Assembly: GCA_964612625.1 (NCBI GenBank)
Contig: CAZTCK010000001.1
Span: 34,284-63,203, forward strand
DNA from: an uncultured archaeon
GTDB lineage: Archaea; Aenigmatarchaeota; Aenigmatarchaeia; QMZP01; QMZT01
Direction: 5' to 3'
DNA: 28,920 nucleotides
The translations under genes were made by a program, and so were the position numbers. Within the stretch, counting starts at the first letter, position 1. Every line of letters starts with the position of its first letter. Below are positions 2,830 through 28,920 of this stretch, piece after piece. The notes beneath the pieces were generated by a model. It made no database searches. It worked only from the letters and a program-made list of their open reading frames with translations, and had not been told where the DNA came from.

Positions 2830-3266
2830 AACAACACCCCCGCAACGATTGTTAAGGAAATTTCGAATACAACTTTATTTCTGTACGTGTAAGGAGATAT
2901 GTGGAGGAACACAACCTTATCGGAGTACGGATAGAACGGCATTGATTTCCCGGTAATGAAATCAATTGCGAAATGAAGTATCACACACACTGCCCCGATG
3001 CTGACAGCCGAGGGGTCAAAAAATATATATGCTGCACAAAAAAGTGCTGAAAAGACGGAAAGTCCGTACATTTCATGAAATCTTGTCCTTGCCTCTGCCC
3101 CGAACCTTCTTTTCACCACCCCTCCCCTGACTTTTAAAAGATACGGGATATGTGTCAGATCTATGAGGACAGACGCCAGAAATATGAGCACCACGTATTT
3201 CCATGCGTTACCAAAAGCGAAATCAACTACAAGGTAGTTGAACAGAAAATGAAAAAGAGGATTCAT
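2799..3266 (-). CDS. Membrane-bound metal-dependent hydrolase (YdjM/DUF457-like)
   Basis: N-terminal His (FHFL), ASVLIDLTH, RTRFHE, HFAIDF and PFYP pattern with transmembrane segments; 4-nt overlap with the cca stop. Confidence 0.7.
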   Translation of the reverse strand: MNPLFHFLFNYLVVDFAFGNAWKYVVLIFLASVLIDLTHIPYLLKVRGGVVKRRFGAEARTRFHEMYGLSVFSALFCAAYIFFDPSAVSIGAVCVILHFAIDFITGKSMPFYPYSDKVVFLHISPYTYRNKVVFEISLTIVAGVLFCLKTASLAL

Positions 3267-4642
3267 GTTCTCCTCCTGAAATATTTCCCGAGGAACACTG
3301 AAAACTCCCTGTCTCTTGCAATCAGTTTTTCAACATCCCCGGTTTTCAGTATCCTGAAGCCCTTTGAGATACCCTCTGCTATATGCGATCTGACTCCGTC
3401 CTCGAGCAGTTTCTTTCTGCTTCTTGAGAGAAAACTCTCAAGAAGTTTTCCGAATTCCCTGTACTTTCTCTTTACTTCAGCCACCCATCTGCTGCCTTCG
3501 ATGTGCGCTTTATTCCCGTATTTTTCCCTGAATTCTTTTACGTGTTTTGCGGAACGAACCGGCGGGCCATTCACCTTCCTGATTTCAGGGAGTTTCCACG
3601 TTTTCATTTCCAGGAGCATATAAGAGGATTTCTCGTCGCTCCACACCTCGGTCATGAAAACTTCAAATTCGTTATCATGCGCGAGATTCACAATTCTGTT
3701 CATGGTCTTTCTCATCTGTGCCCAGAGAATATCATCAACAACAGGCGGTCTCTTGAATTTCACCACGAAAAGCTCAGTTCCCCTCTCTTTCAGGACTTTT
3801 CTTAACTCATTTCTCTTCATAGGAATTTTTTCTATTTCAAAAAACCTTTCCGAAGGTTTTTCGACAAACTTTCTGCATGTTTCTACAAACTTTGCGAAGT
3901 TCCCTTCGGAGAGAGCCGCAGCCACATTTCTCTTGGGGTCGGTAGGGTCTATGACTATAAGCGGCTGGCCTCTGAAATAGTCCTCGGGCCTTTCTATGGC
4001 GGAATGGCCCTCAAGGTCTATGAATTCTCCGAATTTCCAGTTTCTTGCGGATTTAACGAGGTTTTTGAATGTTCTGTATTTTATGATAAGAAGTTCACAA
4101 AGATACCCGGAGAATCCCTGCGTGCGTATATCAGACCCGTAAACATCCATTGCCTTGCAGAACTGCTTCAACAGCCTAACCTCTTTTGACATTTCAGGTC
4201 TGAGGTGTTTCAGTACGTAATTGTTGTGGAATGGTGTACGGTCAACAGCAGATTTTATTTTGGAGGCAGATTTTACCCTGTAACACGGCACGATATCAAG
4301 AGAAAAGCCGTTCACCTTTCCCTTGACATACGGATGTTCGGCATACGAAATCTCGTATCTGCCGCCAAGTTTCTTTACGATTTTCCTTCCGATATCAAGA
4401 CCAGTTTTTTCGAGTTTCTCTCTCGGATACGATACAGGGAACATTATGAATATGTCTATTTCCTTTTTGTCTGTGAGCCATGTGTCGCGGATAAGCGAAC
4501 CCGCAAGTGTTTTCTCGAGACCGAGTGGTTTTATTACAGCGTCTACCGCATCAAGAACCCTTTTCAGAACACATGAAAGTTCACGTCTTTCCTTTTCATT
4601 CGGGGTTATTCTTCTGATCACTTTCTTCAGAATGGTGTCCAT
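3263..4642 (-). CDS. cca: Class I (archaeal) CCA-adding tRNA nucleotidyltransferase
   Basis: GSLIRDTWL..KEIDIF, YAEHPYV, DIVPCY, SAVDRTPFH, GFSGYLCELL and DPTDPKRNVAAA motifs. Confidence 0.97.
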   Translation of the reverse strand: MDTILKKVIRRITPNEKERRELSCVLKRVLDAVDAVIKPLGLEKTLAGSLIRDTWLTDKKEIDIFIMFPVSYPREKLEKTGLDIGRKIVKKLGGRYEISYAEHPYVKGKVNGFSLDIVPCYRVKSASKIKSAVDRTPFHNNYVLKHLRPEMSKEVRLLKQFCKAMDVYGSDIRTQGFSGYLCELLIIKYRTFKNLVKSARNWKFGEFIDLEGHSAIERPEDYFRGQPLIVIDPTDPKRNVAAALSEGNFAKFVETCRKFVEKPSERFFEIEKIPMKRNELRKVLKERGTELFVVKFKRPPVVDDILWAQMRKTMNRIVNLAHDNEFEVFMTEVWSDEKSSYMLLEMKTWKLPEIRKVNGPPVRSAKHVKEFREKYGNKAHIEGSRWVAEVKRKYREFGKLLESFLSRSRKKLLEDGVRSHIAEGISKGFRILKTGDVEKLIARDREFSVFLGKYFRRRT

Positions 4643-4691: not shown

Positions 4692-5519
4692 ATGCATGCA
4701 CGAAAAACGATACTGGATGAGATTGTTGATACCGAAAGACCAGTAACCTGTATATGTCCGGAAAGCCCGGTTGTGTGCAGAAAAGATTCCAGCATAAAGG
4801 ATGTTCTTAAAATCATGCTCGGGAAAAAGTACAGAAAACTTCCGGTACTTGACAAATCAGGGCGTTTAAAAGGTGTTATTACCTCTGTAGACATGCTGAA
4901 TCTTCTCGGCGGCGGCGAAAAATACAGGACATTCAGGAGATGCAGGGAAAGCCTCAGAGCAAAGATTGAAAAATTCATGACAGACCGTGCGGCAACAATA
5001 GAACCGAAGACGAGCATAGGCGAAGCTGCAGATGTTTTCAGAAAGGAGGGCAGGGGATTTTATCCGGTTGCTGATTCGGGAAGGATAGTATCTGTTGTTT
5101 CCGAATGGGATATCGTGAAACTGCTGAAAAAACCGACAGGAATTAAGGTTTATGAGGTTATGTCAGAAAGGCCGATTGTGGCAAGGGGAGACTACATAGT
5201 ATACGATACTGCTAAAATGATATGCAGGGGAGGCTTCAGGAGATTGCCGGTTGTCGAAAACGGGATACTGACAGGAATAGTGACACCAACCGATATTCTC
5301 AACCATTTCATAAGGGGCGGATCAAAAAACCTTCTGCATGACGCAACACCCCTGGAGATGATTATGAAGAAGAATGTGGTGACGGTCAGTCCGGATGAAG
5401 ACATCTTTTCTGCGGTAAAAACCATGAAAGGCAGGAGAGTCGGAGGCATGCCTGTTGTGGAAGACGAGGAACTTCTTGGTATAATAACCGAGAGGGACAT
5501 ACTGGATGTAATCGCATGA
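4692..5519 (+). CDS. Four-CBS-domain (two Bateman module) protein
   Basis: Repeated CBS motifs (YRKLPVLD..GVITSVD; GFYPVAD..VVSEWD; FRRLPVVE..GIVTPTD; VGGMPVVE..GIITERD). ATG 4692 preferred over the track's GTG 4677. Confidence 0.9.
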   Translation: MHARKTILDEIVDTERPVTCICPESPVVCRKDSSIKDVLKIMLGKKYRKLPVLDKSGRLKGVITSVDMLNLLGGGEKYRTFRRCRESLRAKIEKFMTDRAATIEPKTSIGEAADVFRKEGRGFYPVADSGRIVSVVSEWDIVKLLKKPTGIKVYEVMSERPIVARGDYIVYDTAKMICRGGFRRLPVVENGILTGIVTPTDILNHFIRGGSKNLLHDATPLEMIMKKNVVTVSPDEDIFSAVKTMKGRRVGGMPVVEDEELLGIITERDILDVIA

Positions 5520-5965
5520 AAAAAATAGACGAAGAGGAAATGAACAGAATTATAGAAGAACTGAAAGACGCCCTTGTTGTGGTAGAGGGCAAAAGAGACG
5601 AAAAAGCTTTAAAAAGCCTCGGGGTGAAAGATATTATTACCATCGACGGGAAACCGCTTTACGAAGTGGCTGAAATCCTATCGAGGTCAAAAAAGGACAT
5701 AGTCATACTGACAGATTTCGACAGAAAGGGCAGGGAGATGAGAAATAAGCTGAGAAACCTGCTCCAGAGACGCGGGAAACATCCCAATTCAAAATTAAGA
5801 GGAAAGATAATGTCTTTGGGAAGAAACAAAATCGAAGACTTCGGAAATCTTGATATCCGAAGCTCTCTTAAGGAGGTTGATGTTTATGTCAAAACTTGCA
5901 CCAAGTTCAATAAAATACGTGATAAAAGCGGAAATAGACGCAAAAGGGGTAATAGAGAAACCTGA
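5516..5965 (+). CDS. Small stand-alone Toprim-domain protein (RNase M5/primase-like)
   Basis: VVVEGKRD and ILTDFDRKG (conserved E and DxD); ATGA coupling to the CBS gene; 3' tail overlaps dnaG. Confidence 0.88.
   Translation: MKKIDEEEMNRIIEELKDALVVVEGKRDEKALKSLGVKDIITIDGKPLYEVAEILSRSKKDIVILTDFDRKGREMRNKLRNLLQRRGKHPNSKLRGKIMSLGRNKIEDFGNLDIRSSLKEVDVYVKTCTKFNKIRDKSGNRRKRGNRET
5871..5880 (+). promoter_or_regulatory. Shine-Dalgarno site of dnaG
   Basis: AGGAGGTTGA with ATG 5886 at canonical spacing. Confidence 0.7.
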
Positions 5966-7070
5966 TGTTATAGGGGCTATTTTTGGTCAGACCGAGGGTT
6001 TGCTCGGTCCGGATCTCGACCTCAGGGAGCTCCAGAGAACCGGGAGAATAGGGAGGATCGAGGTCAACATAAAATCGGAGAAGGGCAAATCACACGGGGA
6101 GATTATAATACCTTCTTCTCTTGACTCAGCCGAGACAGCCCTTATAGCAGCAACGCTCGAAACTATAGAAAGGGTAGGTCCCTGCTCGGCAAAGATAACG
6201 CTGAAATCAGTAGAAGATACAAGAGAAGCAAAAAGAAAATTTGTGGTGGAAAAGGCCAAAGCGATACTCAAGGAATTGCTTGACAAGGGCATACCGGATA
6301 CGTCAAAAATAGCAGAGGAGATAAAGGAGGAGATAAAGACCTACGAAATAACAACATATCACGGACTTCCGTGCGGCCCCAACCTTCTTGACTCAGAAGA
6401 GATAATCATCGTTGAGGGAAGGGCAGACGTGATAAACCTCGTGAAGTACGGAATAAAGAATGTAATAGCCATAGAAGGGAGTTCGATTCCGCAGGCTATA
6501 ATTGACCTTTCGAAAGAGAAGATAACAACAGCATTCCTCGATTCGGACAGGGGAGGAGACCTGAACCTCAAAAGCCTGCTGGAAACCGCGGACTTGGATT
6601 ATGTAGCCATCGCTCCCGAAGGAAAGGAGGTGGAGGAACTCTCGAAGAAGGAGGTTTTCAAGGCACTGAGAGAAAAGGTTTCTGCTTCTCAGTTCAAGAT
6701 GGAAAAGCACAACCAGGCAGACAGGAAGGAAAAACTACCTGCCAGACAATTTGCAAAACCACAGCCGAAAACAGCAAAGATAACAGAGGAACAGAGAAAA
6801 ATTTTCAAAAAAACCCTGGACGAGCTCATAGGGACACGCGCTGCGTGTATTTTTGATTCAGACTTCAATCTGCTCGGGAAGGTCCCGCTGAAGGAGCTGC
6901 AAAACACGCTGAAAACACTGGACAATCCGTATGCGGTGATATTTGACGGCAAGGTGGATTACAAACTGGATATGATCGCCAGAAGGAAGGGTATAAAGTT
7001 TCTTGTGGGGATGGAAAAGGAGAGAATGAAATCGCATATAAACATACTCTCCAAGGAAGACCTATCATAA
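5886..7070 (+). CDS. dnaG: Archaeal DnaG-type primase (exosome-associated DnaG)
   Basis: KYVIKA..GVIEKPDVIGAIFGQTEGLLG.DLDLRELQ.TGRIGRI, ETALIAATLETIERVGPC, IIVEGRADV and DSDRGG. Start placed at ATG 5886 from the SD. Confidence 0.96.
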   Translation: MSKLAPSSIKYVIKAEIDAKGVIEKPDVIGAIFGQTEGLLGPDLDLRELQRTGRIGRIEVNIKSEKGKSHGEIIIPSSLDSAETALIAATLETIERVGPCSAKITLKSVEDTREAKRKFVVEKAKAILKELLDKGIPDTSKIAEEIKEEIKTYEITTYHGLPCGPNLLDSEEIIIVEGRADVINLVKYGIKNVIAIEGSSIPQAIIDLSKEKITTAFLDSDRGGDLNLKSLLETADLDYVAIAPEGKEVEELSKKEVFKALREKVSASQFKMEKHNQADRKEKLPARQFAKPQPKTAKITEEQRKIFKKTLDELIGTRAACIFDSDFNLLGKVPLKELQNTLKTLDNPYAVIFDGKVDYKLDMIARRKGIKFLVGMEKERMKSHINILSKEDLS

Positions 7071-7110: not shown

Positions 7111-8148
7111 ATGGAAAATTTGCTCAGAAAACTCGTTGGTTCGTCCTCTGTTTCAGGATCCGAAGAAAACGTAAGGAATGTTATAGCAAAAGAAATCAAA
7201 CCATACGTAGATGAAATACGGGTTGACAGGATAGGCAATCTTATCTGCAGAAAGGGTTCAGGCAGCCCGAAAATCATGCTGTGTGCCCACATGGACGAAG
7301 TGGGGCTGATTGTGAAGTATATAGACGAAAAGGGATTTATAAGATTCGAACCTGTTGGGGGGTGGGACCCGAAGATACTTCTGGCCCAGAAATTCAAGAT
7401 ACATGGCTCCAAAGGCCCGGTTGTCGGGGTAGTTGGTTCAAAACCGGTTCATCTGCAGGATAAAGAAGAAGAGAGAAAACCGCCAAAAATCAGTGACATG
7501 TTCATAGACGTTGGTGCGAAGGACAGGAAACACGTGGAAAGACTTGGTATAAACGTGGGGGATTTCATAACACATTACACCGATTTCAACAAACTGGCAG
7601 GCTCGAGGGTGACGGGACACGGCTTTGATGACCGCATAGGATGTCTGGTTATGATAGAGGTTATGAAAAATCTCAAGAAGTTCAGGGGTACGGTATACGC
7701 GGTGGGAACGGTGAAAGAGGAAATAGGGCTTGTTGGTGTGAGGGGTTCTGCATTCAGTATAAAGCCTGATGTTGTTATAGCAATTGACACCACAATATCT
7801 GGTGATACACCGGAACTTAAACCCCACGAGGCTGTCACAAAAATAGGGGAAGGTCCAGCTCTGGTCATAAAGGACGCAATAAGTGTTATACAGAGAGAAA
7901 TGAAAAACTGGGTCAAAGATGTTGCAAAGAGAAGCGGGGTTAAACTCCAGTTCGATGTACTTTCAGGAGGTGCAACAGACGCCTCCGTAACCCCCATGGT
8001 CGGGGAGGGTATACCTTCACTTTCAATTCTCGTACCTTCACGTTACATACACACTCCGGTAGAAGTTGCCGATATGAATGATGTGAAAGATACCATAAAA
8101 CTCGTGACAGAACTGGTGAAATCGGCTCACAAGAAATTTGTTTCATAA
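7111..8148 (+). CDS. M42 family aminopeptidase (TET/Frv-like)
   Basis: AHMDEVG, FDDRIGC, EEIGLVG, IDTT, GGATDA and RYIHTP metal-ligand motifs. Confidence 0.94.
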   Translation: MENLLRKLVGSSSVSGSEENVRNVIAKEIKPYVDEIRVDRIGNLICRKGSGSPKIMLCAHMDEVGLIVKYIDEKGFIRFEPVGGWDPKILLAQKFKIHGSKGPVVGVVGSKPVHLQDKEEERKPPKISDMFIDVGAKDRKHVERLGINVGDFITHYTDFNKLAGSRVTGHGFDDRIGCLVMIEVMKNLKKFRGTVYAVGTVKEEIGLVGVRGSAFSIKPDVVIAIDTTISGDTPELKPHEAVTKIGEGPALVIKDAISVIQREMKNWVKDVAKRSGVKLQFDVLSGGATDASVTPMVGEGIPSLSILVPSRYIHTPVEVADMNDVKDTIKLVTELVKSAHKKFVS

Positions 8149-8532
8149 AATTTTCACATTTCCGTGTACAGGTATAACTTCAAGTTCTCCTCTGTATATC
8201 TGCACACTGCCAACGATATTAATATGTGCGCCATCTTTTATGCTTTCGATGTCAACACCCTTTATTTTCAGGGCATCCAGAGTATCTTCCCACAGAACAA
8301 CTTTCACACTCCCGGTTTCATCTTGGAGTGTGAAGAAGACATGACCACCATTTCTAAAAACACCTCTTACCTGTCCGGTAACATTCACAATTTTTCCCGT
8401 ATATGATTTGTCCAGTTCTCCTATTTTCACGTGAAGTGATGATACAGAGAGGGTGAGGAGGTATATGAGAATAATGCAAAACACAGAACCTGTTGCCGAT
8501 ATTTTTGCCATACTTCTTTCATTCATCTTCAC
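8143..8532 (-). CDS. Membrane-anchored OB-fold nucleic-acid-binding protein
   Basis: N-terminal hydrophobic anchor (SVFCIILIYLL), then VNVTGQVRGV..GGHVFFTLQDETGSVKVVLW..NIVGSVQIYRGELEVI (OB fold of the tRNA_anti/RecJ type). GTGA coupling to thpR; alternative ATG 8526. Confidence 0.8.
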   Translation of the reverse strand: MKMNERSMAKISATGSVFCIILIYLLTLSVSSLHVKIGELDKSYTGKIVNVTGQVRGVFRNGGHVFFTLQDETGSVKVVLWEDTLDALKIKGVDIESIKDGAHINIVGSVQIYRGELEVIPVHGNVKIL

Positions 8533-9074
8533 AGCCTGAGCTTGAATACAGCCAAATCTTCATATACTGGCCCATTTTTTGTGAGGGTGCTCGATTTAAG
8601 TTTCACCTCTTTCACGTACATTTCACCTATATCCGCATCTTTCATCTTCTCTATAAAATTAAGCAGAATTTCCCTATTTTTCCCCGACCTGACCCTTCCT
8701 ATTGTCATATGAGGTGTGAGTTTCGCATCCCCAATCTTCACGTTTTCATTCACGCTCTTCATGAGAGATACAAATTCATCTCTTCCTTCCCCGATACCAA
8801 GCCATATAGCCCTTATGTAGTTCGCATTTCCAAAAAATCCCATGCCCTTTACACGTATTTTGAACGTGCCCTTTCCCTCAATACTTTTTTTGATAAGGTC
8901 TCCTATCCTTTTCACTTCTTCACACTTCACGTCACCGAGAAACTTAATCGTGAAATGAAGATTGGATGACTCAACAAATTTCACATCTACGTTTAGCCGT
9001 TCTATCTCTTTCTGAATCCCGGACACTTTATTTGCGAGTTTCCTGTCCAAATCAACCGAAATAAAACACCTCAT
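8529..9074 (-). CDS. thpR: RNA 2',3'-cyclic phosphodiesterase / 2'-5' RNA ligase (2H phosphoesterase, LigT/ThpR)
   Basis: MRCFISVDL start, two HxT motifs (NLHFTIKF, PHMTIGR) and C-terminal SSTLTKNGPVYE. Confidence 0.93.
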   Translation of the reverse strand: MRCFISVDLDRKLANKVSGIQKEIERLNVDVKFVESSNLHFTIKFLGDVKCEEVKRIGDLIKKSIEGKGTFKIRVKGMGFFGNANYIRAIWLGIGEGRDEFVSLMKSVNENVKIGDAKLTPHMTIGRVRSGKNREILLNFIEKMKDADIGEMYVKEVKLKSSTLTKNGPVYEDLAVFKLRL

Positions 9075-14985: not shown

Positions 14986-16392
14986 ATGAAAGAAAAGTTG
15001 AAACAGATTTCGGATTACGAATGGGTACTGAATAAAGACGCCAGACCGAAAATGAACGTAGGGGCAAAGGTGGTTGGAAACAAGAGGGTGGTCGACTCTC
15101 TCGAAGACGCCGCTGTCCAGCAGCTCACAAATGTTGCATGCCTTCCGGGGGTGATAGAACCGGTGATAGGTCTGCCTGATATGCACTGGGGTTACGGTTT
15201 GCCGATGGGGGCTGTGAGCGCATTCGATTTCGAGAAGGGTATAATATCCTCCGGTCTGTGCGGATTTGATATAAACTGCGGGATAAACTCAATACGAACG
15301 AATCTCACCTATGATGAAGTGAAACCGAAATTGAACGAATTGATAACCGGACTCTTCAAAAACGTGCCGTGCGGTGTGGGCGCAAAAGGACGGTTGAAGC
15401 TCACATACGACCAGCTCGACCAGGTCCTTACAAGGGGCATTAACTGGGCAATAGAAAATGGTTACGGGGACGAAGAAGACAGGAAGCATATTGAAGAAAA
15501 CGGATGTATGGAGGGAGCTGACCCTTCAAAGGTTTCTGACCTTGCGAAGAAGCGCGGCCTCCAGCAGCTTGGAACTCTCGGGGCCGGAAACCACTTTCTT
15601 GAAATACAAAGAGTTTCCGATATTTATGATGAAGAGACGGGGAAGAAATGGGGTATCCGCGAGAAAGATCAGATCCTGATAATGCTTCACTGCGGTTCAC
15701 GCGGTCTCGGGCATCAGGTAGCGACAGACTATCTGAAAATTCAGGAGAAGGCCGTAAAGAAGTACAATATATGGCTTCCTGACCCCCAGCTTGCATGCGC
15801 ACCAGCCACTTCGAAAGAAGGTCAGGATTACTTCACAGCGATGAAATGTGCTGTCAATTACTCGTTCACAAACCGTTTGGTTATGACGCAATGGATTCGC
15901 GAAACATTTGAGAAGGTGTTCGGAAAGGACTGGGAATCCATGGATATGCATACGATATACGGATTATGCCATAATGTGGTGAAAATAGAGGAACACGTGA
16001 TAGACGGGGAAAAGCGGAAGGTATACGTTCACAGAAAAGGCAGCACGCGTGCGTTCCCTGGTGACCCCGTTCTTATCGCAGGGACAATGGGCACTGCAAG
16101 TTACATTCTGAAAGGAACAAAAACAGCGATGGAAAAGACTTTCGGCTCGACCGTTCACGGTGCGGGGCGAAGGATGTCAAGGCACGCGGCCATTCGAAAA
16201 TTTTGGGGAGGGAAGGTCAAAGAGGAACTGGCAAAGAAGGGGATTGTTGCGCAATCAACCCACCCGAAGGTTCTCGCAGAGGAAAGTCCGGATGCGTACA
16301 AAAACGTTGATGATGTAATAGAAAGCGTTCACGGACTTGGAATTTCGCTGAAGGTTGCACGCATGACACCGATAGGCGTGTGCAAGGGATAA
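14986..16392 (+). CDS. rtcB: RNA-splicing ligase RtcB
   Basis: PDMHWGYGLPMG, DINCG, GAGNHFLE, HCGSRGLG, HNV, VHRKG, TVHGAGR and EESPDAYK motifs; no intein. Confidence 0.97.
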   Translation: MKEKLKQISDYEWVLNKDARPKMNVGAKVVGNKRVVDSLEDAAVQQLTNVACLPGVIEPVIGLPDMHWGYGLPMGAVSAFDFEKGIISSGLCGFDINCGINSIRTNLTYDEVKPKLNELITGLFKNVPCGVGAKGRLKLTYDQLDQVLTRGINWAIENGYGDEEDRKHIEENGCMEGADPSKVSDLAKKRGLQQLGTLGAGNHFLEIQRVSDIYDEETGKKWGIREKDQILIMLHCGSRGLGHQVATDYLKIQEKAVKKYNIWLPDPQLACAPATSKEGQDYFTAMKCAVNYSFTNRLVMTQWIRETFEKVFGKDWESMDMHTIYGLCHNVVKIEEHVIDGEKRKVYVHRKGSTRAFPGDPVLIAGTMGTASYILKGTKTAMEKTFGSTVHGAGRRMSRHAAIRKFWGGKVKEELAKKGIVAQSTHPKVLAEESPDAYKNVDDVIESVHGLGISLKVARMTPIGVCKG

Positions 16393-16393
16393 G

Positions 16394-16804
16394 TCATATG
16401 TCAAGGCTGACCACTACTTTATATCCTCTTTTTGTCTTTTCAAGAGAAAATTTGTAATACGTGACCGCTTTTACGAGCGTGCCCCCCTTTTCAGGTTTCG
16501 CCTCCTCCCCGTAACATTTCGCCTTCAGCCCCCTTTCATTTATTTCAACAACATCAAATTTCGAGAAGAATAGACCTTCTGTATCCACAAGCGATATCAG
16601 TTCCTGCAGCCAGTTGAACATGAGGTCTTTCGTATCATCTCCCTTTACGTTAACTTCCCTCTCAACTTTTGGTTTAACCTTTTCGATCTGGCATATCACA
16701 TTGAAGAGAGCGTAGGCTGCATTCTCAAAAAGTTCATTCAGATTCTTTCCGTACGCCTCGAATACCACGTCTGATGTGAGGTCATCTACGAATTTGTACC
16801 TCAT
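16394..16804 (-). CDS. Archease (RtcB cofactor)
   Basis: DDLTSDVVFEAYGKNLNELFENAA, LMFNWLQELI, VKAVTYY and C-terminal SLDI. Confidence 0.93.
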   Translation of the reverse strand: MRYKFVDDLTSDVVFEAYGKNLNELFENAAYALFNVICQIEKVKPKVEREVNVKGDDTKDLMFNWLQELISLVDTEGLFFSKFDVVEINERGLKAKCYGEEAKPEKGGTLVKAVTYYKFSLEKTKRGYKVVVSLDI

Positions 16805-21141: not shown

Positions 21142-22647
21142 ATGAAATTTTATACATTCCTTGCCCTGTCCTTGCTGTTCCTTGCGGGGAGCGCGGATGC
21201 CCTCATTATAAATGAGGTAGTTCCGAATCCCGTTAACAGGAATAACGAATGGGTTGAACTATACAACCCGGAAAATGCGGACATGAATTTTTCACTCTGG
21301 TTAATAGGAGATGACGAAGAAGCCGATGAAATAACATGTCACACCATTGAGAATTGTTCGCTGGAAACAAACGAAACGTACATACTGATAATAGGGCGCG
21401 GAGCCAACATATCGGACATAACAAACGAGAGCGTGACTTATTTTTACGTCGATGATATGAGAATAGGCAATTCCTTGAGCAACACCGGGGACAACGTGAG
21501 CCTCTACAATTCAACAGGTCCTGTTGATAACGTTGTCTACCCTCCCTTTTCAGACAAAAAGGGCTATTCATGGGCGAGAGACGAAAAAGGAAACTGGTCT
21601 TATTGTATTTTGCCGACGCCCGGGAAGCCCAACATTTTCACAAACACCTCTGAAAACGAAACCGAAGAAAATCAAACAGAAATTGATAACGTGTGTGATC
21701 TCCACCTCTGGATAAAATGCAACAGTACATTCGGTCTGGAAAGCAACAAGTATTACCCGATGGTCGAAGACCTGAGAGGCGGGAGTTTCAGGCCGGAGGT
21801 CGAATACTGGATAGAGGACATGTTCGGCAACATCGTGAGACCGAAGCGGAGAACCAACAACACCAATGTCGCCAAATCATGGAAACCGCCTGAAATCAAA
21901 GGAACGGAAGCGTATGTGATACGTGCGGTGATAACGAATATTGTGTGCAACGACACCAATATCTCCAACAATCGCGCAGAAAAGGTTATTGTAGTCAAAG
22001 GGAACGAACCATATTCAGAATGTGTATGCGAAACAAAGATTGTAGAAAAACCGTGCTCCTGCAGTCCGTGTCCGAAATGCATTTCTAGGGAAGAGAAAAA
22101 CAAAAGGCATGAGGAATTCGAAATACTTTCGTATCCGGTTTCCGTGAGAATAGGCGAAGATATCACGGTGGAACTCAGGATAAGAAACCCGTTTTCCCAT
22201 GACAGGAATTACACGGTTTATTCATACGCGTACAGCAGAAATAAACCGATCTCTCTCGGTTTCGACGGGAACCGCTGGCTGAGTGGATGGGATGCGAACA
22301 AACAGGAAATTTCACTCTCCCCGAATTCCTCCATCATCCTTGAGCTGAAGAACAGAATAGCGAACGCCACAGAACCCGGGAAGTATAAACTCAGGGTGAG
22401 GATACTTTGCAATGGGAAAAAACACGACATAACGAAGGATATCATGGTGAACGAAGGCATAGTGGTCCCTGAAAACCCTGAAAACAAAACCGAAAACAAA
22501 ACATCCGAATATGAAACAACTGAAAAACACGATTTTGAAAGACACGACAGAACACCGACAGGCCGGGTGATTTCAAGCGGTGATAACTGGTTCTCAGCTT
22601 TCGTTGAAAACGTAATCAATTTCTTTAAAAACCTGCTCAGTTTATAA
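21142..22647 (+). CDS. Secreted lamin-tail-domain (LTD) surface glycoprotein
   Basis: Sec signal peptide (..LAGSADA), LTD motifs IINEVVPNP..NEWVELYN, LSNTGDNVSL, YSWAR, PTPGKPN. Ig-like beta-rich domains follow. About 20 N-x-S/T sequons by hand count. Cys-rich CVC..CSCSPCPKC linker and amphipathic C-terminus. Confidence 0.82.
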   Translation: MKFYTFLALSLLFLAGSADALIINEVVPNPVNRNNEWVELYNPENADMNFSLWLIGDDEEADEITCHTIENCSLETNETYILIIGRGANISDITNESVTYFYVDDMRIGNSLSNTGDNVSLYNSTGPVDNVVYPPFSDKKGYSWARDEKGNWSYCILPTPGKPNIFTNTSENETEENQTEIDNVCDLHLWIKCNSTFGLESNKYYPMVEDLRGGSFRPEVEYWIEDMFGNIVRPKRRTNNTNVAKSWKPPEIKGTEAYVIRAVITNIVCNDTNISNNRAEKVIVVKGNEPYSECVCETKIVEKPCSCSPCPKCISREEKNKRHEEFEILSYPVSVRIGEDITVELRIRNPFSHDRNYTVYSYAYSRNKPISLGFDGNRWLSGWDANKQEISLSPNSSIILELKNRIANATEPGKYKLRVRILCNGKKHDITKDIMVNEGIVVPENPENKTENKTSEYETTEKHDFERHDRTPTGRVISSGDNWFSAFVENVINFFKNLLSL

Positions 22648-22709
22648 TATTAGAGTGATGTTCCTTGCGGACGTCTTTCGCGAATTCACGGGCCTGTAGC
22701 TCAGCTGGA

Positions 22710-22754
22710 AACAGCGAATGACGCAGGCTTTGCCTGCGTCCATCGAATCGGCAG
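22710..22754 (+). other. tRNA intron 1 (45 nt), D-loop, position 20/20a
   Basis: Relaxed BHB: central helix GCUG/CGGC (22704-07 with 22749-52), bulges GA|A and AG|U, internal 9-bp hairpin GACGCAGGC-TTT-GCCTGCGTC. Confidence 0.8.
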
Positions 22755-22794
22755 TAGAGCACTTGCCTCCTAAGCAAGGGGTCGAGGGTTCGAA

Positions 22795-22858
22795 AGTCGA
22801 AACCACCAGCGGGTTTCGACGCATCCTGCAACCAAATTCAAGACCACAGGATTGAAAA
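22795..22858 (+). other. tRNA intron 2 (64 nt), T-loop, position 59/60
   Basis: BHB closed by the T-stem: central helix UUCG/UGAA (22789-92 with 22853-56), bulges AA|A and AA|U. Two internal hairpins (22796-22820 and 22823-22852). Confidence 0.85.
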
Positions 22859-22915
22859 TCCCTCCAGGCCCGTTCCTGCATAGATTTATAACTTTTCGCG
22901 GACAAAACTATAAAC

Positions 22916-23677
22916 ATGGCAAGGATTATTGCTGTATCCTCCGGTAAGGGTGGCGTCGGGAAGACGACACTCGTTGCGAACCTCGCTGCTGCCCTCGCCC
23001 GATACGGAAAATCGGTTGTAGCCCTCGACGCGAATCTCACGACATCCAACCTTGCCATACACCTCGGCATGCACCTCTACACTCGAACACTCCACGATGT
23101 TCTGGAGGGGAAGGCGAGGATAAGGGATGTCACATACGAACACAAATCCGGTTTTAAAATCGTTCCGGCTGACATATCATTCAGAAGGATAAGGGATGTG
23201 AAAACGCACGAATACCTCGATATTTTTTACAAACTCATCGAAGACCACGACTTCGTTCTGATAGATTCGCCCGCGGGTTTGGGGAGAGACTCGATCGCAA
23301 CGATAGAGGCGGCGGATGAACTCATAACCGTAACAAACCCTGAACTTCCCGCTGTAACCGATGCGCTCAAGCTGAGTCTCATCGCCAAAAAATACTCCAC
23401 ACATAATCTGGGTGTGGTTGTTAACAGGATAAAAAGGGAATCGCATGAGGTCCCTGTTGAACACATAGAGAAGATGTTAGGCCTGCCGATAATAGGACGA
23501 ATTCCTGAAGACAAAGAAGTCCGGAAGGCGATCGCTCTGAAGGAGCCGGTTGTCTCCCACAACCCGAAGTCTATCGCTGCGCAACATATGAAAGCGATTG
23601 CGGCGAAACTTATCGGGGAAGAATATGAACCGAAAATCCCGTGGGGTCTACGTCTGTTCGGCTGGCTGACGAGGTAA
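22916..23677 (+). CDS. minD: Archaeal MinD-family ATPase
   Basis: Deviant Walker A SGKGGVGKTT, LDANLT..NL, LIDSPAGLG, VTNPE..AVTDA, VVNR, IPED..V; amphipathic C-terminus LRLFGWL. Confidence 0.9.
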   Translation: MARIIAVSSGKGGVGKTTLVANLAAALARYGKSVVALDANLTTSNLAIHLGMHLYTRTLHDVLEGKARIRDVTYEHKSGFKIVPADISFRRIRDVKTHEYLDIFYKLIEDHDFVLIDSPAGLGRDSIATIEAADELITVTNPELPAVTDALKLSLIAKKYSTHNLGVVVNRIKRESHEVPVEHIEKMLGLPIIGRIPEDKEVRKAIALKEPVVSHNPKSIAAQHMKAIAAKLIGEEYEPKIPWGLRLFGWLTR

Positions 23678-26767: not shown

Positions 26768-28177
26768 TCACTCCTCCCAAACTTCCGCCTGATACGTTTC
26801 GATGCGAACGTCGGGTTTCGTCCAGCAGTCGGGAGGTGATCCCTGTTTCAGGCAGAGTCTCGAAAGAAAGTCCTGTTTGTTGGGAAGCGAGCCCCAGACC
26901 TGCGGGAGATACGTGGATGTTCGCCCGCGATAGTGTATAACGACCCCGTCCACCCCCGGTCTGAGCTTTTCGAGGAGGTCCTGCGGACTTTCGAAAGCCA
27001 ACGGTTTCGGAACGGAGAGGACGGAGATTTCGATCTTTATGTCTTTCAGTTCTTCATATGTTACGGCTTCGAATCTCGGATCGTTAAGAGCGGCGTTCAC
27101 CGCGTTGTCTATGACGCATTTATAGAGTTCTTCCTGCGGGAGGATGTGCCCTATACATCCGCGGAGGTTTCCGAATTTGTTGAGCGTGACGAAGCACCCG
27201 CGTATTTCTCTCAACTTCAGCGTGAGTTCGCTCGCTTCGACCTTTGGTTTGCCCTTCCCGCTCAAATAGGATTCGAGGGTTTGCCTCGCGAGTTTCGTGA
27301 GGAACTCCCTTTCCTCTTTCGAAAAGCCCGTTTCGTAAAATGCGATGGAAGCGTAGCCAACGACGCGCGATTTATCCCCGGCTGTATCGCCCGAATTCCT
27401 GTAATCGAGCAGTTTCCCCTCCCATCCAAAATCCTTCGCGAGATGCATGAGCGTCAGGATGGGGATTTTCCCGCATGCCTCGCATGCGTCCATCCCCTCA
27501 AAATCGAGCGAGGGGATAGAATGAATACAAAACGCATCCAAACTCTTCGCCTGTTCATAGGGGTAGTAATGCGAAAGGTCAGAGCTCGCGATAACGAGCG
27601 TCCGGTCATCAATGTATTTCGAAAGTATCTTCGCGAGGGTTTCAGGATCTATATCACCGACAACAATCGGGATGATCTCGAAATCGTACAAAACCTTCTG
27701 CAGGAACGGGATCTGAACCTCCACCGAGTGTTCTTTCGCATGAATCCGCTCATCGTAAAAGAAATATCTCTCCTTCCGTAACCCGTCCGCTTTCTTCGAA
27801 ATTCTTACGAGTCCCAGCGGGGTCTCGTAGTGGGTCGCGTTCGGGATGGAAAAACCGGAAAAACGGGCGTGATGCGAAGGACCGAGTATTATGACCGTGT
27901 CGTAGCGTTCGCCCTCGAGCTGTTTGTATCCGTAGGCGGCAACAGGGCCGGAGTAGATATAACCCGCATGCGGCGAAACGAGACCTCTAACCTTCGTCAA
28001 GCTTTTCTCCGCCTGCGAAAGGTATTCCGATATTATGGAATCGAGCTCATTCGCGTCCGCGGGGTAGAAGGCCCCTGCGACATTCGGCTTCTTCACAATC
28101 ATCTTCTCGCCCCCTTCGGTTACACATCCTGAAACCAGGAGGACGAATAAAATCACGAGCACGAACCTCAAATTCAT
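26768..28177 (-). CDS. amrB: AmmeMemoRadiSam protein B (Memo)-protein A (AMMECR1) fusion with lipoprotein-type signal peptide
   Basis: Memo motifs VAGAFYP, PHAGYIYSG, GPSHH, EHSVEVQ, SSDLSHY, CG, NSGD. AMMECR1 motifs GCFVTL, LRGCIG, DPRF, EISVLS, YLPQVW. N-terminal MNLRFVLVILFVLLVSG|C. ATG 28177 overlaps the amrS stop (ATGA). Confidence 0.93.
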   Translation of the reverse strand: MNLRFVLVILFVLLVSGCVTEGGEKMIVKKPNVAGAFYPADANELDSIISEYLSQAEKSLTKVRGLVSPHAGYIYSGPVAAYGYKQLEGERYDTVIILGPSHHARFSGFSIPNATHYETPLGLVRISKKADGLRKERYFFYDERIHAKEHSVEVQIPFLQKVLYDFEIIPIVVGDIDPETLAKILSKYIDDRTLVIASSDLSHYYPYEQAKSLDAFCIHSIPSLDFEGMDACEACGKIPILTLMHLAKDFGWEGKLLDYRNSGDTAGDKSRVVGYASIAFYETGFSKEEREFLTKLARQTLESYLSGKGKPKVEASELTLKLREIRGCFVTLNKFGNLRGCIGHILPQEELYKCVIDNAVNAALNDPRFEAVTYEELKDIKIEISVLSVPKPLAFESPQDLLEKLRPGVDGVVIHYRGRTSTYLPQVWGSLPNKQDFLSRLCLKQGSPPDCWTKPDVRIETYQAEVWEE

Positions 28178-28920
28178 AACTTCCACACCCCCGCTATCGG
28201 CTCGCCACAGAAGGCGCAGGAATCGTTTTCGATGTGATTCTGAAGAATCGAATAACCTTTCCTTTCGATAACGATTTTCCCGCAGTGCGGACAGTAAGTA
28301 TTCTCCCCCTCATGCCCCGGGACATTCCCTATGTACACGAATTTCAACCCGACGTCCATCGCGATTTCCCTCGCTTTCTCCAGCGTTTTAACGGGCGTGG
28401 GAGGGAGATGTTTCAGTTTGTATTCGGGATGAAAGCGTGAGAAGTGGAAGGGGTAATCCCTCCCAAGATTTCGCGCAATCCACTCACACATCTCCCTTAT
28501 CATTCCGAAATCATCCGTGTACGTGGGGATGACGAGGTTTGTGATCTCAAACCACACGTTTTCGCTCTTCAGGATTTTCAGCGTGTCCAGGACCGGCTGC
28601 AACCGACCGGCATTGAGCGTGTTGTATATTTCCTCCCTGAAGCTTTTGAGATCGACGTTCGCCGCATCCAGATATTTGCAGAGGTCACGAAGTGCTTCTT
28701 CGCTCATGTAGCCGTTCGTTATCCAGAGGTTCTTTATACCATGCGAACTCGCTAGCTTCGATGTATCGTACATATACTCGTAAAACGCGGTGGGCTCGGA
28801 ATAAGTGTAGGCGATGGAAGCGCATTTATACGCCAGCGCATTCTTCACAACATCTTCCGGGAAGAGTTCAACATTTTTCGTGTCTTCCGGTCTGAACTGC
28901 GAGATTTCCCAGTTCTGGCA
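28174..28920 (-). CDS. amrS: AmmeMemoRadiSam radical SAM enzyme, partial (5' end beyond the right edge)
   Basis: The frame stays open to the window edge and reads CQNWEISQ (end of the CxxxCxxC motif), then AYTYSEP, ITNGY, AANVDLK, EITNLVIP, HFSRFHP, YIGNVPG and TYCPHCG. Confidence 0.93.
   Translation of the reverse strand, partial: CQNWEISQFRPEDTKNVELFPEDVVKNALAYKCASIAYTYSEPTAFYEYMYDTSKLASSHGIKNLWITNGYMSEEALRDLCKYLDAANVDLKSFREEIYNTLNAGRLQPVLDTLKILKSENVWFEITNLVIPTYTDDFGMIREMCEWIARNLGRDYPFHFSRFHPEYKLKHLPPTPVKTLEKAREIAMDVGLKFVYIGNVPGHEGENTYCPHCGKIVIERKGYSILQNHIENDSCAFCGEPIAGVWKL

Follow-up and report, generated by a model that had tools for sequence, protein, structure and literature searches.

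The 28,920-nucleotide (nt) stretch of contig CAZTCK010000001.1 considered here, which comes from an uncultured archaeon and is referred to in its full 28.9-kb length as the window, contains at positions 22690-22872 of its plus strand a segment that reads as a transfer RNA (tRNA) gene interrupted twice, once in the D-loop and once in the T-loop. This gene, tRNA-Arg(CCU), lies between a gene for an LTD-domain protein and a gene for a ParA/MinD-family protein, and its parts are arranged as follows.

22690-22709 (+): exon 1, 20 nt, GGGCCTGTAGCTCAGCTGGA; 5′ strand of the acceptor stem, U8 and A9, 5′ strand of the D stem, and D-loop through A20
22710-22754 (+): intron 1, 45 nt, in the D-loop at linear position 20/21 (Sprinzl 20/20a)
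22755-22794 (+): exon 2, 40 nt, TAGAGCACTTGCCTCCTAAGCAAGGGGTCGAGGGTTCGAA; end of the D-loop, 3′ strand of the D stem, anticodon arm, variable loop, 5′ strand of the T stem, and T-loop through A59
22769-22771 (+): anticodon CCU (CCT in the DNA), within exon 2
22795-22858 (+): intron 2, 64 nt, in the T-loop at position 59/60
22859-22872 (+): exon 3, 14 nt, TCCCTCCAGGCCCG; U60, 3′ strand of the T stem, 3′ strand of the acceptor stem, and discriminator G73
22641-22649 (+): putative archaeal TATA-like box, TTTATAATA, recognized by reading the sequence about 45 nt 5′ of the tRNA end

Joining the three exons of this 183-nt unspliced gene produces a 74-nt cloverleaf with 21 stem pairs, all of them Watson-Crick, in which the conserved tRNA nucleotides are all present and which ARAGORN calls as tRNA-Arg(cct). 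The anticodon loop, CTCCTAA, is contiguous, leaving no intron at position 37/38, and no CCA is encoded by 22690-22872. A first-pass annotation of this DNA had proposed the three-exon organization, and the coordinates given there are exact. It had also noted that standard finders can miss such genes, which is the case here for the two programs applied: ARAGORN, and Rfam at its gathering thresholds, found no tRNA in the raw window, nor did Rfam in a permissive E-value mode, and ARAGORN made no call on the unspliced locus or on either of the singly spliced forms.

As a control for chance, the 20/45/40/64/14 splice template was slid along both strands of the window and each of the 57,476 placements was scored with ARAGORN. 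A tRNA was called at only eight of them, all adjacent offsets around 22690, and the cloverleaf at 22690-22872 thus exceeds chance. The program tolerates template shifts of -4 to +3, however, and the exact junctions must therefore rest on other evidence. The suggestion that the structure is a chance cloverleaf, or an artefact of chimeric assembly, has in its favor that the window is metagenome-derived and nothing else. The chance version is effectively refuted by the sliding control. Against an artefact stand orthologs from seven further metagenome-assembled genomes (MAGs) or contigs, as well as the recurrence of the same 183-nt gene, one intron single-nucleotide polymorphism apart, in independent ENA, Logan, and JGI assemblies of the window's population (loci L001, L002, which is partial, and L023); the probability of either version is regarded as negligible. 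The polymorphism, which is the single difference between the window and L001 or L023, is a T-to-C change at 22735 that turns an A-U pair of the intron-1 hairpin into A·C, and the exons are identical.

Searching genome_contigs for a pattern derived from exon 2, with the anticodon arm fixed and the rest left free, recovered 20 loci, mostly from MAGs of DPANN archaea (loci are given here by L number). A metagenome scan limited to T-loop-interrupted copies added three further contigs, one of them from the window's population, and the comparative set is thus small. Nine syntenic orthologs lie directly upstream of the same ParA/MinD-family gene, as identified by tblastn, in DPANN MAGs mostly titled Aenigmatarchaeota, and the upstream LTD-domain gene is common to several of the loci. 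The identity of their ParA to the window protein is 81% for L003, 76% for L020, and 56-59% for the others (tblastn). Both introns are present at the same two sites in L008, L009, L012, L016, L024, and L025, while the T-loop intron alone is found in the syntenic L019 and in the non-syntenic L006. In L003 and L020, the closest relatives by ParA, the tRNA-Arg(CCU) gene at the corresponding place between LTD and ParA is precisely intronless (698-773 in L003 and 1670-1745 in L020). The 20/21 site is accordingly occupied in seven sequences and the 59/60 site in nine, and all nine predicted spliced products are tRNA-Arg(cct) by ARAGORN. Without any splicing, the two intronless orthologs are recognized by ARAGORN and reach 70.3 and 74.5 bits with the Rfam tRNA model (RF00005), which gives no score to the interrupted orthologs.

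Uninterrupted tRNA-Arg(CCU) genes of two bacterial MAGs (L005 and L018; Vallitaleaceae and Fimenecus) were picked up by the exon-2 pattern as well. The anticodon arm is common to both domains, and a match to the arm alone is therefore not evidence of relatedness. Another side observation concerns L009 (JAADIF010000034.1), which is titled Candidatus Micrarchaeota, yet its ParA and two-intron tRNA-Arg group with those of the Aenigmatarchaeota-titled L012 and L024; the phylum label of L009 may be imprecise.

When the spliced and intronless sequences are aligned, every row reads GGATAGAGC in the D-loop and TTC(G/A)AATCC in the T-loop. The D-loop GGATAGAGC and T-loop TTCGAATCC of the intronless orthologs equal those formed at the predicted junctions in the window, which are thus reproduced by uninterrupted genes. 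With both sites kept in six syntenic orthologs and the product matched by the intronless ones, the proposed placement of the introns at 20/21 and 59/60, with none at 37/38, is borne out. The retention of A20 by the predicted cut, to which the first-pass annotation had drawn attention, is likewise consistent with the comparison, as GGAUAGAGC is found in every ortholog, intronless genes included. A20 is an identity element for arginyl-tRNA synthetase under rules established for the bacterial enzyme. The cloverleaf itself was examined in an 11-sequence alignment against 500 shuffles and slid controls: 100% of the cells are paired, compared with 28-56% in the slid controls, and compensatory changes occur in six pairs: the acceptor stem, which joins exon 1 to exon 3, accounts for four, and the T stem, between exons 2 and 3, for the other two. 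None of the 500 shuffles match the observed values.

The boundaries of the T-loop intron coincide with a bulge-helix-bulge (BHB) motif, which occupies a single interval.

22784-22864 (+): strict 3-4-3 hBHBh′ motif of intron 2, in junction-anchored geometry

The outer helix of this motif is the T stem, with 5 base pairs (bp) between 22784-22788 and 22860-22864, and the 4-bp central helix is formed by T-loop nucleotides 54-57 (UUCG, 22789-22792) with the 3′ end of the intron (UGAA, 22853-22856). The flanking bulges are AA^A (22793-22795) and AA^U (22857-22859), where the caret marks a cut after bulge nucleotide 2, and the inner helix, GUC 22796-22798 with GAU 22850-22852, consists only of G·U, U-A, and C-G. 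The motif conforms to the strict hBHBh′ definition. Intron 2 also contains a 9-bp hairpin (22796-22804 with 22812-22820) and a second helix at approximately 22823-22827 with 22848-22852; in the constrained fold the hairpin begins right after the bulge, and a three-way-junction variant of the motif would be equally possible. When each cut was moved over -6 to +6 and all 169 resulting registers were scored as BHBs, the T-loop register defined by the cloverleaf is the sole best BHB in eight of nine sequences and is tied for best in the ninth. In the junction-anchored alignment, 89% of the cells of the motif are paired and 8 of its 14 pairs display double changes, while slid controls reach 41-63%, and the covariation score was attained by none of 500 shuffles. 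Because exon 2 ends in GAA and intron 2 in AAAA, T-loop cut shifts of -1 or -2 give an identical mature sequence.

These comparisons bear on the possibility that the locus is a decaying or disrupted pseudogene, in which two insertions broke an intact tRNA-Arg(CCU) and left no functional tRNA. Such a view could draw on the blindness of standard finders to the locus, on the intact gene that the nearest relatives, L003 and L020, have at the same place, and on the D-loop motif described below, which is no textbook BHB. However, the exons are without defect, with all stems Watson-Crick and the conserved nucleotides in place, and the same two sites are interrupted in six other genomes, at ParA identities down to 56%. 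The introns diverge freely and can be aligned between close relatives only, while the helices at the cut sites keep pairing by compensatory changes; the exons, by comparison, are 94% identical across orthologs, and the stems that span the interruptions co-vary. Codon usage points in the same direction: among the 400 arginine codons of 19 genes in the window, AGG (163) is the most used, ahead of AGA (134) and the four CGN codons together (103), which makes it unlikely that the cognate tRNA is dispensable. A pseudogene is therefore considered very unlikely, and selection would appear, from these substitution patterns, to maintain exactly the helices that the BHB splicing pathway needs.

The corresponding element around the D-loop intron is less regular.

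22704-22755 (+): relaxed BHB motif of intron 1, from junction-anchored geometry and folding

All four pairs of its central helix form (GCUG 22704-22707 with CGGC 22749-22752), and the bulges, GA^A (22708-22710) and AG^U (22753-22755), are again cut after nucleotide 2. Each intron thus has two bulges with a 4-bp helix between them, in agreement with the earlier description of cuts lying 2 nt into 3-nt bulges. The accompanying claim of BHB-like boundaries stands for the T-loop, where the motif is strict and displays compensatory changes, and is to be weakened for the D-loop, where the motif is relaxed. Over seven sequences, 75% of the cells of the D-loop BHB are paired, with slid controls at 21-52%. 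Intron 1 contains a 9-bp hairpin (22720-22728 with 22732-22740), in which a compensatory change from GCAGG/CCUGC to GCAGA/UCUGC is seen. The intron is homologous in sequence to its D-loop counterparts in L016, L008, and L025, with which it aligns across three ParA clades. Inspection of both introns, by eye only, found no C/D-box (RUGAUGA...CUGA) or K-turn motifs.

Overall, 22690-22872 (+) is very probably a functional DPANN tRNA-Arg(CCU) gene with BHB introns in the D-loop and T-loop that are old in the clade and have been precisely lost in some lineages; judging from sequence, it would be transcribed, spliced, aminoacylated, and used in translation. Several observations weigh against this interpretation, some of them concerning the D-loop motif. 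An A14·A21 mismatch divides its central helix from the D stem, which serves as the outer helix, and the inner helix is just 1 bp, with an internal loop behind it. The covariation of the motif is not significant, as 28 of 500 and 110 of 500 shuffles reach the observed values. In addition, the unconstrained minimum free energy (MFE) fold, at -76.6 kcal/mol, prefers a GCUG/CAGU register that buries the 3′ splice site, and when both BHBs and the stems of the cloverleaf are imposed as constraints, the fold has -72.3 kcal/mol, 4.3 above the MFE for the isolated RNA. As for the remaining points, a Pfam scan of 28 open reading frames (ORFs) of the window, which is 28.9 kb of the genome, found no EndA domain; a second, intact tRNA-Arg(CCU) outside the window is possible; the putative TATA box is unusually distant from the 5′ end of the mature tRNA; and the anticodon stem was fixed by the search pattern, so that its invariance is uninformative. 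The TATA-like box overlaps the stop codon of the LTD-domain gene, and A/T-rich boxes 20-45 nt upstream can also be read in orthologous tRNA loci.

The peculiarities of the D-loop motif might also be taken to mean that the gene is functional and one of its junctions is processed otherwise. The D-loop intron, for example, would be cut in another register or only after removal of the T-loop intron, and either the mature D-loop, including position 20, would differ from the prediction or a specialized factor beyond standard EndA would be involved. In addition to the MFE preference for GCUG/CAGU, two observations are compatible with this: the D-loop BHB scores tie with those of neighboring registers in several orthologs, and a -1 shift in the window gives G20 in a tRNA that is still acceptable to ARAGORN. 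However, GCUG/CAGU pairing does not exist in L008, L009, L012, and L024, whereas the modelled register is available in these four as in all seven sequences, and the latter alone yields the D-loop GGAUAGAGC, which is invariant in all 11 sequences, including three with an uninterrupted D-loop. At the other junction, the tolerance of the product for shifts of -1 and -2 renders the mature sequence robust. Alternative processing of this kind is thus judged quite unlikely. Because register availability, the invariance of GGAUAGAGC, and the homology of the introns all favor the modelled register, the D-loop motif is called a relaxed BHB, and a relaxed rather than a strict BHB is what it fits.

If the gene is functional, its maturation can be outlined from the established steps of archaeal tRNA splicing. 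The precursor would be a transcript in which a leader and a trailer flank approximately 183 nt, with a start downstream of the TTTATAATA box being possible. In it, D-loop nucleotides 15-18 and T-loop nucleotides 54-57 would pair with the 3′ ends of the introns to create the two 4-bp central helices, and since G18 and C56 would be sequestered in these helices, the precursor could not form the D-loop/T-loop elbow. EndA would then recognize each BHB independently, cutting after A20 and before U20a in one case and after A59 and before U60 in the other, whereupon RtcB and Archease would join exon 1, exon 2, and exon 3 and would circularize the introns. RNase P and RNase Z would trim the ends, a CCA enzyme would complete the 3′ end, and the mature 74-nt tRNA would read AGG. 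The window includes the following genes related to such steps.

14986-16392 (+): RtcB tRNA-splicing ligase (Pfam PF01139, E = 2.5e-159)
16394-16804 (-): Archease, the RtcB cofactor (Pfam PF01951, E = 3.2e-38)
3263-4642 (-): archaeal-type CCA-adding enzyme (Pfam PF09249, PF21133, and PF01909)
8529-9074 (-): LigT-like 2H phosphoesterase (Pfam annotation)

The genes for RtcB and Archease are convergent, with their 3′ ends 1 nt apart, and are located 6 kb upstream of the tRNA gene. The CCA-adding enzyme is needed because the tRNA gene encodes no CCA. Together with the LigT-like 2H phosphoesterase, these make four genes of RNA-end processing or tRNA maturation within 28.9 kb. The gene content of the window, as annotated with Pfam, is archaeal (RadA, RPA, L1/L10, archaeal pilins, a PilB-like ATPase, and PPDK), and the host is most likely an Aenigmatarchaeota-like DPANN archaeon. 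Candidatus Aenigmatarchaeota is a phylum of Nanobdellati/DPANN (taxonomy record).

The distribution of the introns can be set against a neighbor-joining tree of ParA, which represents a single gene and is indicative only. The tree resolves three clades, in all of which both introns occur, with the window nesting alongside the two genomes that lack introns. The acceptor stem of the window gene (GGGCCUG) is of the L003 type, while the other intron-bearing genes have the GGGCCCG type, which speaks against an intron-bearing allele having been imported recently. On the simplest reading, the two introns are ancestral, both were lost precisely in L003 and L020, either once or twice, and the D-loop intron was lost in L019. 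Conceivably, within one Aenigmatarchaeota-like clade, the decoder of the commonest arginine codon has kept both introns since before ParA fell to approximately 56% identity, whereas sister lineages deleted both precisely at least one time, possibly twice independently. In that event, the LTD-tRNA-ParA locus would be a natural series for studying intron loss, recombination with a spliced copy being one conceivable route, and would imply an uncharacterized DPANN EndA that cuts a D-loop motif almost without an inner helix. This broader scenario is put forward tentatively, as somewhat less likely than an even chance.

No sign of intron mobility was encountered: in a blastn-short comparison of 16 introns with the window and all loci, which is a limited data set, no second copy was found outside the orthologous positions. 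A duplicated tRNA 3′ end, as would be expected of an attachment-site (att) remnant, was not found elsewhere in the window. The lone match to GGTTCRAWYC, at 7343-7352, was rejected as such a remnant, being inside a peptidase gene and at chance frequency.

Non-canonical and multiple tRNA introns are already known from Thermoproteales, ARMAN-2, and other DPANN archaea, and the gene is not surprising to a specialist. It is likewise established that such introns depend on EndAs of broad specificity (epsilon2 in ARMAN-2, (alpha-beta)2 with the Crenarchaea-specific loop, and alpha4 with the L3 loop), in which particular loop insertions (L1, L2, or L3) permit cutting of relaxed motifs or at non-canonical sites. 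In ARMAN-2 (Ca. Micrarchaeum), pre-tRNA-Cys(GCA) has an intron at 59/60 and pre-tRNA-Pro(GGG) has introns at 53/54 and 59/60, and the 59/60 intron of tRNA-Cys is cleaved in vitro by the epsilon2 EndA (Fujishima et al., 2011; PMC3239211). The gene in the window resembles these in its DPANN host, in a T-loop intron located exactly at 59/60, in a BHB composed of the T stem and T-loop nucleotides, and in having more than one intron with no dependence on 37/38. It differs in its Aenigmatarchaeota-like host, in the identity of the tRNA, and in the combination of D-loop and T-loop sites. The tRNA-Cys intron of ARMAN-2 is also only 13 nt long and forms a relaxed hBH motif, whereas the T-loop intron in the window has 64 nt and can form the strict hBHBh′.

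For the D-loop, the closest comparison is the BHB intron of Aeropyrum pernix pre-tRNA-Thr2(UGU), which sits in the same loop and is processed both in vivo and in vitro (Hirata et al., 2011; PMC3241643). Archaeal EndA removes that intron without other factors, although more slowly, and relies on a broad-specificity feature, the Crenarchaea-specific loop (CSL) (PMC3241643). The A. pernix case is, however, crenarchaeal; its EndA is of the (alpha-beta)2 form, its tRNA gene has one intron only, and the BHB is canonical, in contrast to the relaxed D-loop motif and the second, T-loop intron of the window gene. Members of Thermoproteales, such as Pyrobaculum calidifontis, have up to three introns per tRNA gene (PMC8450103, PMC3239211), and as in the present case, generic tRNA finders miss the genes, and intron positions are common to relatives, with gain and loss. 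These organisms belong to the TACK lineage and have L1/CSL-type (alpha-beta)2 EndAs, and their intron sequence families show evidence of transposition between tRNA genes, for which no counterpart was seen among the limited data on the window introns. The first-pass annotation had pointed to Thermoproteales and ARMAN as precedents; they hold for multi-intron genes with non-canonical sites, but the host here appears to be an Aenigmatarchaeota-like DPANN archaeon instead. A possible need for a broad-specificity endonuclease, and the hypothesis that introns can disrupt viral integration targets, had also been raised there.

In DPANN archaea, alpha4 EndAs with an L3 loop go with increased tRNA gene disruption, and disrupted tRNAs that have escaped detection probably remain in this group (Kaneta et al., 2018; PMC5829648). 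The gene in the window fits the prediction of disrupted DPANN tRNA genes that current predictors miss, and judging by the text of that study, its analysis did not include tRNA sets of Aenigmatarchaeota (PMC5829648). The BHB models of tRNAscan-SE 2.0 were trained on introns from Crenarchaeota/Euryarchaeota and Thaumarchaeota (PMC8450103). In the open-access literature, no description of this gene or of Aenigmatarchaeota tRNA introns was found.

Although tRNA-Arg(CCU) as found here does not overturn current understanding, it extends multi-intron tRNA genes with non-canonical sites to Aenigmatarchaeota-like archaea, and it leads to the prediction that the EndA of these organisms tolerates introns at non-canonical positions as well as a relaxed motif in the D-loop. 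There is also a consequence for annotation. With ARAGORN and the Rfam tRNA model reporting none, a MAG of this lineage would seem to have no decoder of its commonest arginine codon, and a tRNA missed in this way affects estimates of completeness and codon capacity for DPANN genomes. Finally, a compact series of presence and absence (both introns, the T-loop intron only, or none) at one syntenic locus should be useful for dating and explaining intron loss.

Some further features of the window deserve mention. A TTTATAAC box at 22885-22892, about 28 nt before the ParA ATG at 22916, is conserved in orthologous loci, and its position suggests that an archaeal promoter immediately follows the tRNA gene and would drive a putative leaderless mRNA for ParA. 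A 142-aa ORF on the minus strand (22642-23070) overlaps both the tRNA gene and the well-supported ParA gene and was taken as a mechanical ORF. The permissive Rfam mode returned a match to the bacterial S15 leader at 5751-5854 (+), with 21.3 bits against a gathering threshold of 39.5 and E = 0.58, which is most likely due to chance. Two Toprim ORFs, at 5516-5965 (+; 149 aa) and 5850-7070 (+; 406 aa), overlap by 116 nt, and the pair could represent two genuine primase-like genes or else result from a frameshift or a wrongly placed start. A 472-aa ORF at 26768-28186 (-) contains a Memo-like domain fused to an AMMECR1 domain.

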